Shown piece by piece: positions 49,901 to 51,674 of a DNA stretch of 64,000 nt. A program made the translations under genes and the position numbers. The notes under the pieces were generated by a model. It did not search any database, had not been told where the DNA came from, and was given only the letters and a program-made list of their open reading frames with translations. The DNA comes from Escherichia phage Pu-Krd-SF1, in the sequence record PQ249395. One strand, written 5' to 3'. Each line of letters begins with the position of its first letter. Position 1 is the stretch's first letter.

Positions 49901-50680
49901 ATGAATTATACTAAAGTATATAATAATTTAATTAAGAAAGGAAAACTCAGAAAATTAGATAAATCTAAATTAAATTTTTATACGGAAAAGCATCATATTA
50001 TTCCATCTTGTATTGGTGGTAATGATGATTCTGATAATCTAGTTTTATTAACAGCTAGAGAGCATTTTATAGCCCATTGGCTTTTAGCTAAAATTCATTA
50101 TAATTCGCCTGGATTAATTTATGCATAGTGGTCATTTTATAATTTTGGAGAAGATTCTTTAGGAAGAAATCTCAAATTAACTTCAAGAGGATATCAGTTA
50201 GTTAGAGAAAAATTTTCAAAAATACATTCTAATACAATGAAAGAAATGTGGAAGTCTAATGAATACAGAGAAAAACGTTCGATAACATTAAGTCTTCCTG
50301 AAATAAGGGCTAAAATTTCAGAATCCCAGTTAGAAGCACAAAACAAACCGGAAGTTAAAGAAAAAATATCTAAAGGGGTGAAAGCTGCTTTTAAACGACC
50401 GGGAGTTAAAGAAAAACACTCTGCTGCAGTCAAAAAATCTTTGAATAATTTTGAAACTAAAAAGAAACAATCAAATTCATCTAAAATTAGACAAAGAACT
50501 GGTAAACATTGGCAAGACTATGACTTACTTTATAAGTTATGGATTAAATTAAATAGACCTAAACGTGGGTCATTCGGAACTTATATAAGTAAATTAGGAT
50601 ATCCAAAATCTAATTATCATCGATTGATTGTACAATTTAATGAAGATTATGAAAGGTCTAATAATGAAAACTGTAGTTAA
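49901..50680 (+). pseudogene. HNH homing endonuclease (Mob-like) interrupted by one in-frame TAG
   Basis: N-part with HHIIPSCIGG…N…H motif ends at TAG 50126-50128; same frame stays open through 50680; N-terminus paralogous to the gene at 12082-12894. Confidence 0.6.
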
Positions 50681-51674
50681 GTCTTATTTTGGTAGTCATC
50701 TTTATGGAACTTCTACCCCAGAATCTGATGTAGATTTTAAAGAAATCTTTGTTCCTCCTGCTCGTGATATTCTTATTGGAAATGTTAAAGAGCACATGAG
50801 TAAAAACACTAACAACACATCATCTAAAAACACTAAAGATGATATTGACCATGAACTATACAGTCTTAAATATTTCTTTAAATTAGCAGCAGATGGTGAA
50901 ACTGTAGCATTGGATATGCTTCACACTCCACCTGAATTAGTGGTTAAATCTGATTTGCCTGATGTATGGAAATTTATCCAAGACAATCGTTCACGGTTTT
51001 ATACAACTAACATGAAATCCTATTTAGGATATGTCCGCAAGCAAGCTTCTAAATACGGTGTCAAGGGTTCTCGTTTGGCCGCATTACGTGATGTATTGAA
51101 AGTAGTTAATCAAATCCCTGACCAGTGGGTTGATTACCAAGAAGACGGTTCCATTAAGCAGCGTCGCACTAAAGTTGAAGATATTAAGCATCGTCTTCCA
51201 GAAAACGAGTTCTGTGAATGGGTGTTCCATAATCATGAGAAAACAGGCCCGCAAACGTTCTATACTGTGTTGGGTCGTAAATATCAGACTACACTTTCTC
51301 TTATTGAGCTTAAGCAGTCTTTGAATAAACTTGATGCTGAATATGGTGAACGCGCTCGTAAGGCCGAAGCCAATGAAGGTATTGACTGGAAAGCATTGAG
51401 TCATGCTTGTCGTGGTGGACTCCAGCTATTGGAAATTTACAAAACTGGTGACTTAGTCTATCCACTCCAAGACGCTCCATTTATTCTCGACGTGAAGTTG
51501 GGTAAGCATCCATTTAAAACTGTTCAAGAGTTTTTGGAAGATGTGGTCGATCAAGTAGAAGCAGCATCCATTGAAGCTTCTAAGAATGGTATGCAGCAAA
51601 AAGTAGACATGGGTTTCTGGGATGACTTCCTTGAGAGGGTTTATCTTGAAAACCATCGAAGTTATTATAAATGA
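50664..51674 (+). CDS. Pol-beta-superfamily nucleotidyltransferase-like protein
   Basis: N-terminal GSHLYGTSTPESDVDF (GS-x10-DxD) and downstream VALDMLH acidic residue; 336 aa; RBS GAAAGG. Confidence 0.55.
   Translation: MKTVVKSYFGSHLYGTSTPESDVDFKEIFVPPARDILIGNVKEHMSKNTNNTSSKNTKDDIDHELYSLKYFFKLAADGETVALDMLHTPPELVVKSDLPDVWKFIQDNRSRFYTTNMKSYLGYVRKQASKYGVKGSRLAALRDVLKVVNQIPDQWVDYQEDGSIKQRRTKVEDIKHRLPENEFCEWVFHNHEKTGPQTFYTVLGRKYQTTLSLIELKQSLNKLDAEYGERARKAEANEGIDWKALSHACRGGLQLLEIYKTGDLVYPLQDAPFILDVKLGKHPFKTVQEFLEDVVDQVEAASIEASKNGMQQKVDMGFWDDFLERVYLENHRSYYK

Follow-up and report, generated by a model that had tools for sequence, protein, structure and literature searches.

The gene at positions 50664 to 51674 of the window, the whole 64,000-nucleotide stretch of Escherichia phage Pu-Krd-SF1 DNA (PQ249395) analyzed here, is nrdC.11 of phage T4. 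Its product is a nucleotidyltransferase (NTase) of the Pol-beta superfamily, an assignment supported by a profile match, residue conservation, and the predicted fold. We propose, with a probability of roughly 0.55, that NrdC.11 is an RNA nucleotidyltransferase of the RlaP type, working without a template, that would restore nucleotides to damaged tRNA 3' ends before repair by Pnk and Rnl1.

Gene identity and transcriptional organization

The locus contains the following features.

49901 to 50680, plus strand: mobD, HNH homing endonuclease (HNH Pfam match, T4 annotation, translation comparison)
50651 to 50656, plus strand: Shine-Dalgarno-like GAAAGG, read from the sequence, 7 nt before the ATG
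50664 to 51674, plus strand: nrdC.11 coding sequence, 336 amino acids plus stop, long-subtype RlaP-family nucleotidyltransferase (open reading frame, T4 identity, PF10127, phrog_388)
51676 to 51706, plus strand: intrinsic terminator with an 8-bp stem, a TTCG loop, and a T-run (terminator scan, RNA fold)
51790 to 52758, plus strand: nrdC.10, P-loop AAA/STAND-like ATPase (weak AAA_14, AAA_22, and nSTAND3 matches; phrog_1250)

The encoded protein is identical to T4 NrdC.11 at 333 of 336 residues (99%), with D153E, I303T, and G317S (written window-to-T4) as the sole three substitutions, and the gene order mobD - nrdC.11 - nrdC.10 is the same as in T4. From the sequence alone it had not been recognized as a canonical T4 gene, but it is one. 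The reading frame runs from the ATG at 50664 to a stop codon ending at 51674, and the protein starts MKTVVKSYFGSHLYGTSTPESDVDF. The program-made list of open reading frames opens the frame upstream, at TTG 50628. The ATG is preferred because it fits the N termini of homologues and is the annotated start in both T4 and the identical record PQ759886. The gene is present in 721 phage records, and a match of its product to a nucleotidyltransferase COG dates back to 2006.

The 3' end of the mobD frame overlaps the start of nrdC.11 by 17 nt. When its translation is compared to an intact 260-codon homologue, mobD is broken by a stop at codon 76. This premature stop is a feature of Pu-Krd-SF1 that differs from T4, whereas both phages share the neighbors, the mobD overlap, and the layout of terminator and promoter downstream. 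As first proposed, nrdC.11 has its own ribosome binding site, a weak Shine-Dalgarno site 5' of the ATG, and is followed by a strong terminator. Six of the 8 bp in the terminator stem are G-C pairs (GGGAGCC-TTCG-GGCTCCC, 51676 to 51695), and the hairpin is followed by TTTTTTTATTT. Its predicted RNA fold has a free energy of -17.5 kcal/mol (z = -4.9), and none of 200 shuffled sequences folds as well.

A promoter-like site (51727 to 51755) lies between this terminator and nrdC.10, which is a separate transcription unit and a neighbor. The two genes adjoin in 27 of 79 viral loci with nrdC.11 homologues and in none of 80 bacterial loci. Given the terminator, the separate promoter-like site, and these counts, nrdC.10 was rejected as a functional partner. 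Other recurrent phage neighbors (rI, tk, vs, and others) merely mirror the common T4 gene order, and RtcB is found near nrdC.11 homologues in just two viral loci. The window contains a cluster of eight tRNAs approximately 15 kb from nrdC.11, and no RNA-ligase or Pnk gene beside it. The T4 genes for Pnk, Rnl1, and Rnl2 (including pseT and rnlA) lie elsewhere in the T4 genome.

A conserved nucleotidyltransferase core of the RlaP family

NrdC.11 matches the RlaP family PF10127 (E = 4.3e-11; score 43.4 bits, gathering cutoff 23), the match spanning only protein residues 7 to 134 and model positions 24 to 142 of 249. It also matches phrog_388, "nucleotidyltransferase" (E = 4.9e-136). The name RlaP was reportedly coined by Burroughs and Aravind in 2016. 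NrdC.11 was named as a member of the family in a December 2025 preprint, in whose PF10127 network T4 NrdC.11 falls in cluster 5 and the characterized RlaPs in cluster 1a (PMC12776372).

The AlphaFold model (pLDDT of 88.4) combines an NTase core, which has the alpha/beta fold of such enzymes, with a HEPN-like helical domain. A Foldseek search of the BFVD viral models returned 34 matches at E <= 0.001, and the named ones are mostly "nucleotidyltransferase"; phage NTases of 230 to 290 amino acids align over more than 300 columns with a TM score (query) of 0.45 to 0.52. Searches of PDB sequences with the single protein and with the family profile found no relative, and those of NCBIfam and PADLOC yielded zero matches.

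Three groups of residues were considered for the active site.

50691 to 50735, plus strand: NTase signature G10-S11 ... S21-D22-x-D24 (GSHLYGTSTPESDVD), from residue conservation, predicted structure, and hhalign
50841 to 50849, plus strand: D60-I-D62, probable third catalytic carboxylate, from conservation, predicted strand, and hhalign
50913 to 50915, plus strand: D84 in VALDMLH, from conservation, predicted helix, and hhalign

The sequence-only reading had identified a Pol-beta-type NTase from a GS-x(9-13)-DxD signature. The motif is present and its residues are invariant, but taken bare it is undiagnostic: it occurs four times in the stop-free stretches of the window, the nrdC.11 match included, and with three more matches in the same window it was dismissed as evidence. 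In NrdC.11 it is meaningful because of the PF10127 match, the invariance in alignments, and the conservation in cluster representatives. G10, S11, S21, D22, and D24 are invariant in alignments of 53 and 62 sequences, down to 34% identity, and at least 99% conserved across 144 cluster representatives. In the AlphaFold model, G10-S11 falls where strand E2-9 passes into helix H11-14, whereas D22 and D24 open strand E23-30. The protein thus has the hallmark of the Pol-beta superfamily, a G-[GS] at a helix N terminus with [DE]-x-[DE] on the strand that comes after it, and hhalign aligns D22 and D24 with the DSDYD of canonical RlaP. The assignment to Pol-beta-type NTases is borne out by the PF10127 match, the conserved catalytic residues, and the predicted core. 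It could have failed on a profile match to a non-NTase fold or on variable motif residues; the profile searches returned PF10127 and phrog_388, and G10, S11, D22, and D24 did not vary.

As third catalytic acid, D60/D62 on a predicted strand is a likelier candidate than D84 in a predicted helix. The third catalytic carboxylate of these enzymes usually sits on such a strand. D62 is invariant in both alignments and D60 at least 95% conserved (95 to 100% for the pair). Predicted strand E61-67 begins at these residues, and hhalign sets them no more than one column from the first Asp, itself invariant, in the "lDinGWD" of canonical RlaP; the register of this alignment is approximate. The further acidic residue noted earlier in VALDMLH, D84, is indeed conserved (96% of the 144 representatives), but it is inside predicted helix H80-85, and hhalign pairs it with the invariant E in the "EWLxSP" helix of canonical RlaP, so as a third catalytic acid it was probably misassigned.

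The same signature had hinted at a cGAS/DncV-like (CD-NTase) signaling enzyme or a toxin-type nucleotidyltransferase. What speaks for this is the generic GS...DxD, which is common to all Pol-beta-fold enzymes. Against it, PADLOC gave no match, no such family appeared among the Pfam hits or the structural matches listed, and the adjacent genes are mobD and nrdC.10, with no effector. The hint found no support, and we consider such an identity extremely improbable.

A long subtype with its own C-terminal half

Beyond the core, two further regions can be distinguished.

51081 to 51290, plus strand: variable beta-rich middle subdomain, about residues 140 to 209 (low conservation, AlphaFold strands)
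51342 to 51503, plus strand: C-terminal helical-domain motif Y227-G-x-R230 ... D241-W-K-A-x-S-H247-A-x-R250 ... P267 ... K278-x-G280 (conserved)

By sequence comparison, NrdC.11 is a distinct "long" RlaP subtype of which only the first 130 residues or so align to canonical RlaP. Aligning the NrdC.11-family profile with canonical RlaPs using hhalign gave a probability of 91.9% (E = 7e-7) over residues 2 to 130 only. In this part, canonical RlaP (PF10127; PfRlaP and PaRlaP) has a homologous N-terminal NTase in which the GS, the DxD, the strand aspartate, and the acidic residue of the helix are aligned. Both proteins have two domains, an NTase and a helical domain. However, NrdC.11 is about 70 to 80 residues longer and carries the variable beta-rich insert. 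At every position between R137 and Y227, conservation across the 144 representatives stays below 90%, and strands are predicted there at E154-158, E164-168, E184-191, E195-202, and E205-208 (pLDDT about 87 to 91). The C-terminal half has an invariant motif of its own, YGxR...DWKAxSHAxR...P...KxG, and does not align in sequence to canonical RlaP. Since the remaining 200 residues or so do not align by sequence, the substrate and product of NrdC.11 could differ from those of the characterized enzymes.

Genomic context of bacterial and archaeal orthologues

We analyzed 80 bacterial and archaeal loci with full-length NrdC.11 homologues (32 to 54% identity), with neighbors confirmed by Pfam. A canonical short RlaP was present in 25 of the 80, directly downstream in 23 and fused to the long protein in one (L080); the stop and start of the long and short genes often overlap. 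In bacteria, the NrdC.11 type usually stands beside a canonical RlaP rather than replacing it. No other downstream neighbor recurred in the 80 loci. RNA-repair families are the sole recurrent theme among the bacterial neighbors: RtcB was found in nine loci, Pnkp in seven, Hen1 in six, Ro60 in five, and RtcA in two, and 17 of 80 loci had at least one such gene. One locus (L038) has the order Ro60 - RtcB - RtcA - NrdC.11-type - RlaP - Hen1 ... Pnkp. Operon linkage to RtcB, Pnkp/Hen1, and RtcA is common to canonical RlaP and NrdC.11-type genes. In 47 of 80 loci, the fetched flanks contained no RNA-repair gene and no partner RlaP.

These neighborhoods bear on whether the substrate might be a protein or a small molecule. 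NrdC.11 could AMPylate a host HEPN or other toxin, like the MNT antitoxin, or adenylylate a small molecule, like ANT(4') or LinB. The likeness to such enzymes is at the fold level only, with 9 to 16% identity (about 9% for the kanamycin nucleotidyltransferase ANT(4') and the NTase-like protein 3c18), and RlaP is the only sequence-family match. Moreover, ANT(4') acts on an aminoglycoside and lacks a link to RNA-repair genes, whereas such genes are the bacterial neighbors of the NrdC.11 type. MNT antitoxins of HEPN-MNT pairs are small (approximately 100 to 150 amino acids) and encoded beside a HEPN toxin gene. NrdC.11, in contrast, has 336 residues and no separate adjoining HEPN gene; its HEPN-like domain is part of the same polypeptide and shows no R-x(4-6)-H motif, R230 and H247 being 17 residues apart. 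On these grounds it was rejected as an MNT antitoxin. Assayed RlaPs also left Escherichia coli proteins unlabeled (PMC12776372), and we regard a protein or small-molecule substrate as improbable.

An oligonucleotide synthase resembling HalB of the Hailong system, making oligo(deoxy)adenylate or a similar product, for example as a counter-defense that keeps the HalA channel of a Hailong-type system shut, is less probable still. The structural alignment is limited to the NTase core of approximately 117 residues at 15% identity. HalB (PDB 9dbh and 9dbj) has 217 residues, lacks the C-terminal half of NrdC.11, and has no detectable sequence relationship to it; the NrdC.11-family profile search of PDB sequences missed HalB even at E <= 10. 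PADLOC gave zero matches, and no halA-like membrane gene recurs as a neighbor in the 80 bacterial loci or occurs in the window. Lacking both the sequence match and a HalA-like partner gene, NrdC.11 was not accepted as a HalB. The HalA channel as partner and the protein-primed oligo-dA product also set HalB apart from NrdC.11 (PMC13434031). Assayed RlaPs, for their part, did not extend DNA (PMC12776372).

Among phage records matching the short-RlaP query, none is from an Escherichia phage; on these sequence matches, T4-like phages carry the long type alone. Given the frequent pairing with canonical RlaP, the long type may depend on a partner that is missing from T4-like phages.

Proposed role in RNA 3'-end repair

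In the mechanism that we favor, the N-terminal Pol-beta-type domain (G10-S11, D22, D24, and D60/D62) would bind two divalent metal ions and an NTP and would attach a single NMP, or a small number of them, to a broken RNA at its 3'-OH. The RNA is probably the 5' half of a tRNA that has been cleaved within the anticodon loop. The helical domain at the C terminus, which is conserved and basic (R230, K243, H247, R250, and K278), may help to grip the NTP and the RNA. Pnk would first strip the 2',3'-cyclic phosphate to leave a 3'-OH, NrdC.11 would then put back nucleotides trimmed by a nuclease such as RloC, and Rnl1 would finally join the 3'-OH to the 5'-phosphate. The enzymology of T4 Pnk and Rnl1 fits a 3'-OH substrate and ligation to a 5'-phosphate. 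The 3'-OH product of RlaP likewise fits a ligase that uses a 5'-phosphate, such as T4 Rnl1 (PMC12776372, discussion).

The biochemical precedent comes from Pseudomonas. PfRlaP and PaRlaP extend the 3'-OH ends of RNA by one or two NMPs, favor Mn2+, and are inactive on DNA and protein (PMC12776372). RlaP has been predicted to restore nucleotides removed by RloC ahead of ligation (PMC7824862). We infer that NrdC.11 would likewise add NMPs and would act in T4 tRNA repair. The earlier verdict of "unknown role" stands in part: RNA 3'-end NMP addition has been demonstrated for the RlaP family (PMC12776372), whereas for T4 NrdC.11 itself the role is only predicted. nrdC.11 is dispensable in laboratory T4 infections (PMC9825161).

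Some observations count against a repair role, namely the limit of the sequence match to the N-terminal part, the separation of NrdC.11 (cluster 5) from the characterized RlaPs (cluster 1a) in the family network, the lack of an adjoining RNA-ligase or Pnk gene in the window, the 47 bacterial loci with neither a repair gene nor an RlaP, the frequent bacterial pairing with a canonical RlaP, and the dispensability of nrdC.11 in laboratory infections.

RNA 3' tailing outside repair, by which NrdC.11 would flag transcripts or tRNAs of the host or the phage for processing or decay, or would touch up phage tRNA 3' ends, appears rather unlikely. The tRNA cluster in the window and the phage genomes in which no ligase gene adjoins nrdC.11 agree with it; however, that cluster is about 15 kb off, and the Pnkp/Hen1, RtcB/RtcA, and Ro60 clusters of the bacterial orthologues point to repair and not decay. 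In addition, CCA maturation of T4 tRNAs is credited to the host CCA enzyme, which counts against tailing. In its favor, the assayed RlaPs discriminated little among NTPs, and their substrates also included full-length tRNAs and rRNAs (PMC12776372).

Returning to repair, the overlapping long and short genes and the single fusion may point to a two-enzyme nucleotide-restoration step. As a tentative extension, less likely than not, long RlaPs might form a separate enzyme class with its own substrate-binding half, an obligate bacterial pair with canonical RlaP in Pnkp/Hen1 and RtcB/RtcA/Ro60 clusters, the two enzymes restoring nucleotides together (e.g., each responsible for one nucleotide or one RNA end). 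T4 would keep the long enzyme only, as an unrecognized third component of the Pnk/Rnl1 pathway, and could thereby defeat nucleotide-excising anticodon nucleases such as RloC.

Implications for phage RNA repair

Viral RNA repair has its textbook example in T4 Pnk and Rnl1, which act against the anticodon nuclease PrrC. Should NrdC.11 put nucleotides back ahead of ligation, the T4 pathway would gain a third enzyme, and phages could answer nucleases that remove bases besides cutting. The gene and its annotation are already known: they are not new, because the restoration idea has been published for the RlaP family and T4 NrdC.11 has already been named a member. The additions made here are modest. 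NrdC.11 represents a long subtype for which the N-terminal domain is all that it has in common with the characterized RlaPs. In bacteria, the gene for this subtype usually lies immediately upstream of one for a canonical RlaP, in RNA-repair clusters, and in T4-like phages it occurs without the short partner.

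Identity and expression signals of nrdC.11

The open reading frame (ORF) under study corresponds to nrdC.11 of T4. Its product is identical to T4 NrdC.11 at 333 of 336 positions and the gene order follows that of T4 (mobD.1 - mobD - nrdC.11 - nrdC.10 - nrdC.9); the sequence-only reading, which did not recognise a canonical T4 gene here, was wrong on this point. By megablast, nrdC.11 is present in 721 phage records, nearly all T4-like. Over the stretches compared, the coordinates of Escherichia phage Pu-Krd-SF6 (PQ759886.1) coincide with the window at an offset of 64058: bases 1-48942 agree in feature coordinates, and 49000-53200 are 100% identical. 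T4 survives loss of the nrdC.11-mobD.3 block (PMC9825161). Some public names seem to have been propagated wrongly from the locus names nrdC.x and mobD: many GenBank and UniRef entries list NrdC.11 homologues as "thioredoxin", one as "HNH homing endonuclease", and MobD appears in several records as [quoted passage not shown].

Features around nrdC.11
49901-50680: mobD (HNH homing endonuclease), upstream of nrdC.11, with a premature stop at codon 76 (50126-50128)
7 nt 5' of the nrdC.11 ATG, + strand: GAAAGG site, read from sequence
50664-51674, + strand: nrdC.11, 336 codons, N-terminus MKTVVKSYFGSHLYGTSTPESDVDF
Directly 3' of the nrdC.11 stop, + strand: strong intrinsic terminator with an 8-bp stem (6 G-C pairs), TTCG loop and T-run
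51727-51755: promoter-like site 5' of nrdC.10
51790-52758, + strand: nrdC.10, a 322-aa P-loop AAA/STAND-like protein with weak Pfam matches only (AAA_14, AAA_22, nSTAND3)

A mechanical ORF list offers an upstream TTG start at 50628; the ATG at 50664 is the start that agrees with homologue N-termini and public annotation. The first 17 nt of nrdC.11 are shared with the 3' end of the preceding reading frame. The terminator RNA folds at -17.5 kcal/mol (z = -4.9), and none of 200 shuffles folds equally well. With the ORF, the GAAAGG site and the stem-loop plus T-run confirmed, the initial description of a gene with its own ribosome-binding site and a strong terminator was correct.

mobD is intact in T4 and Salmonella phage pSe_SNUABM_01 (260 codons) but interrupted in the window, where the stop replaces W76 of the intact homologue and splits the gene into 75-aa and 147-aa ORFs. 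Downstream, nrdC.10 was rejected as a partner of nrdC.11: it sits behind the terminator and the promoter-like site, adjoins nrdC.11 in 27 of 79 viral loci, in close T4 relatives only, and never occurs near the bacterial homologues (80 loci).

Elsewhere in the window, a tRNA cluster (34281-36284) comprises eight genes: Leu, Gly, Pro, Ser, Thr, Met(CAT), Tyr(GTA) and Arg. It is immediately preceded by an HNH endonuclease gene, and a homing-endonuclease gene separates tRNA-Tyr from tRNA-Arg. The set may differ from that of T4, since T4 has tRNA-Gln and is not known to carry tRNA-Tyr. A 152-aa ORF at 32452-32907, labelled "RNA ligase" in the identical public record, occupies the position of T4 gene 57B, which encodes a 2H-phosphoesterase-type protein and is not known as a sealing ligase; the ORF should not be counted as an RNA-ligase neighbour of nrdC.11.

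A conserved nucleotidyltransferase core

The proposal of a Pol-beta-type nucleotidyltransferase (NTase)-like protein had started from a GS-x(9-13)-DxD signature. Within the window's stop-free stretches this bare pattern has four matches, nrdC.11 included, and therefore proves nothing alone; it arises by chance at this sequence length.

Other GS-x(9-13)-DxD matches
27804, + strand: stop-free stretch, this one at least within a structural (baseplate) gene
15505, - strand: stop-free stretch
18110, - strand: stop-free stretch

The NTase core was nevertheless read rightly, as profile matches and motif conservation show. NrdC.11 scores 43.4 bits (E = 4.3e-11) with Pfam PF10127 (RlaP), whose curated cutoff is 23, and matches PHROG 388, "nucleotidyltransferase", over its full length (E = 4.9e-136). 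A COG3541 nucleotidyltransferase domain had been matched to nrdC.11 orthologues in 2006 (PMC1524935). Searched exhaustively, 1.84 billion cluster representatives gave 3412 clusters with E <= 1e-3, of which 828 reached E <= 1e-30; most are full-length, at ~320 aa. In alignments reaching down to 34% identity, G10, S11, G15, S21, D22, D24, N56, D62, Y131, R230, K243, H247, R250, P267 and K278 are invariant, and D60, D84, W102, Y123, Q127, G228 and D241 nearly so. The two refutations set out in the sequence-only reading, a non-NTase fold and motif residues that vary among homologues, were both looked for, and neither was borne out.

Predicted structure and candidate third carboxylate

The AlphaFold2 model, built from a 62-sequence alignment, is confident (mean pLDDT 88.4, pTM 0.72). 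It comprises an N-terminal alpha/beta NTase domain, a sequence-variable, beta-rich middle subdomain (about aa 150-208) and a C-terminal helical domain with an invariant basic motif.

Structure table for the NrdC.11 model
HalB of the Hailong system: 10.0 (117 residues)
NTase-like protein 3c18: 9.0
ANT(4'): 7.6
LinB: 6.9

D22 and D24 begin strand E23-30 of the model, and D60 and D62 begin strand E61-67; the start of such a strand is the usual position of the third metal ligand. The further acidic residue singled out by the sequence-only reading, D84 in VALDMLH, is indeed conserved and may matter in some way, but it sits in helix H80-85. When the family profile is aligned to that of canonical RlaPs, D60/D62 land in the "lDinGWD" segment, and D84 is matched to the invariant E of "EWLxSP". 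D62 (or D60) is thus a likelier candidate than D84 for the third catalytic residue.

NrdC.11 as a long RlaP subtype

In hhalign, the NrdC.11 family aligns to canonical RlaP over residues 2-130 only (probability 91.9%, E = 7e-7), and the PF10127 match is confined to residues 7-134. An invariant motif of its own marks the other ~200 residues. By sequence, NrdC.11 is a distinct, divergent long subtype. A two-domain plan is probably common to it and shorter NTases, because phage NTases of 230-290 aa align structurally to the model over >300 columns (TM (query) 0.45-0.52), which is no proof of homology in the C-terminal half. Jumbo phages of Pseudomonas, Brevundimonas, Caulobacter and Burkholderia encode the short RlaP described below. 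Among phage records it was found in no Escherichia phage, which leaves T4-like phages with only the long type.

Linkage to RNA-repair genes

When prokaryotes were scanned at one genome per species, 80 loci with full-length NrdC.11 homologues (32-54% identity) emerged, belonging to Desulfobacterales, Nitrospirota, many Alphaproteobacteria and some archaea. Neighbouring ORFs were called and clustered, recurrent clusters were annotated with Pfam, and genes were recounted by tblastn, independently of ORF calling.

Genes in the fetched flanks of NrdC.11-type genes
Canonical short RlaP (255-290 aa; full-length PF10127 at E = 1e-51 to 1e-62): 25/80 loci
RtcB: 9/80 loci
Pnkp (kinase-phosphatase-ligase): 7/80 loci
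Hen1: 6/80 loci
Ro60/TROVE: 5/80 loci
RtcA: 2/80 loci
At least one RNA-repair gene: 17/80 loci
RNA-repair gene or short RlaP: 33/80 loci

In 23 of its 25 loci (23/80 overall) the short RlaP is the next gene downstream, in the same orientation, often overlapping stop to start, as a long/short pair (for example, locus L053, 4088-9802). In a metagenome-assembled genome (L080, 7979-9784) the two are fused into a 601-aa protein. A Nitrosospira locus (L038, 3555-16626) combines Ro60, RtcB, RtcA, the NrdC.11-type gene, short RlaP, Hen1 and, further on, Pnkp. Among the two upstream neighbours, no theme other than RNA-repair families recurred; downstream, nothing besides short RlaP recurs across the 80 loci. 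Loci with RtcB or Pnkp span several unrelated lineages, although four of the Pnkp loci are from Asticcacaulis and hence non-independent. RNA-repair genes are rare in a genome, which makes chance co-location at this rate very unlikely, as judged from general copy-number knowledge and not from a computed control.

A candidate role between Pnk and Rnl1

nrdC.11 is already known as an annotated T4 gene, placed by recent literature in a biochemically characterised family. According to a December 2025 preprint (PMC12776372), two Pseudomonas RlaPs extend RNA 3'-OH ends by one or two NMPs, with a preference for Mn2+. All NTPs and dATP serve as substrates, neither DNA nor protein is acted on, and the favoured end in a nicked-tRNA mimic is that of the 5' half; the enzymes also raise the aminoacylation of a tRNA repaired after the loss of one anticodon-loop nucleotide. 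In the PF10127 similarity network of that study, the assayed enzymes fall in cluster 1a and T4 NrdC.11 in cluster 5. The 3'-OH product is awkward for RtcB, though not for 5'-phosphate/3'-OH ligases such as Rnl1 (PMC12776372). An earlier comparative study predicted that phage RlaPs restore nucleotides taken by nucleases such as RloC before ligation (PMC7824862).

We propose, at a probability of roughly 0.55, that NrdC.11 restores nucleotides at RNA 3' ends, acting between Pnk and Rnl1. Binding an NTP and two metal ions via D22, D24 and D60/D62, it would extend a damaged RNA at its 3'-OH by one or a few nucleotides. In T4, Pnk removes the 2',3'-cyclic phosphate and phosphorylates the 5'-OH, NrdC.11 would refill the trimmed 3' end, and Rnl1, a 5'-phosphate-to-3'-OH ligase, seals the break. 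This chemistry fits the known Pnk/Rnl1 pathway. Gene identity, fold, residue conservation, N-terminal family membership and orthologue gene linkage are observed; the enzymatic activity is known from distant family members only, and the role in T4 is inferred.

The same 3'-end addition could serve RNA tailing for a purpose other than repair; beside the linkage to RNA-repair genes we regard this as rather unlikely. MNT- or ANT-like nucleotidylylation of a protein or small molecule has its likeness in the ANT(4') entry, and the assayed RlaPs leave protein untouched; we hold it improbable. HalB-like oligonucleotide synthesis as counter-defence has a structural likeness over 117 residues, and set against the RlaP chemistry it seems a long shot. 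CD-NTase signalling, a further use of an NTase core, is barely credible.

The residual interest is that the T4 protein is a divergent long subtype of a family whose activity is known from distant RlaPs only, and that bacteria usually pair this long subtype with canonical RlaP inside RNA-repair clusters.
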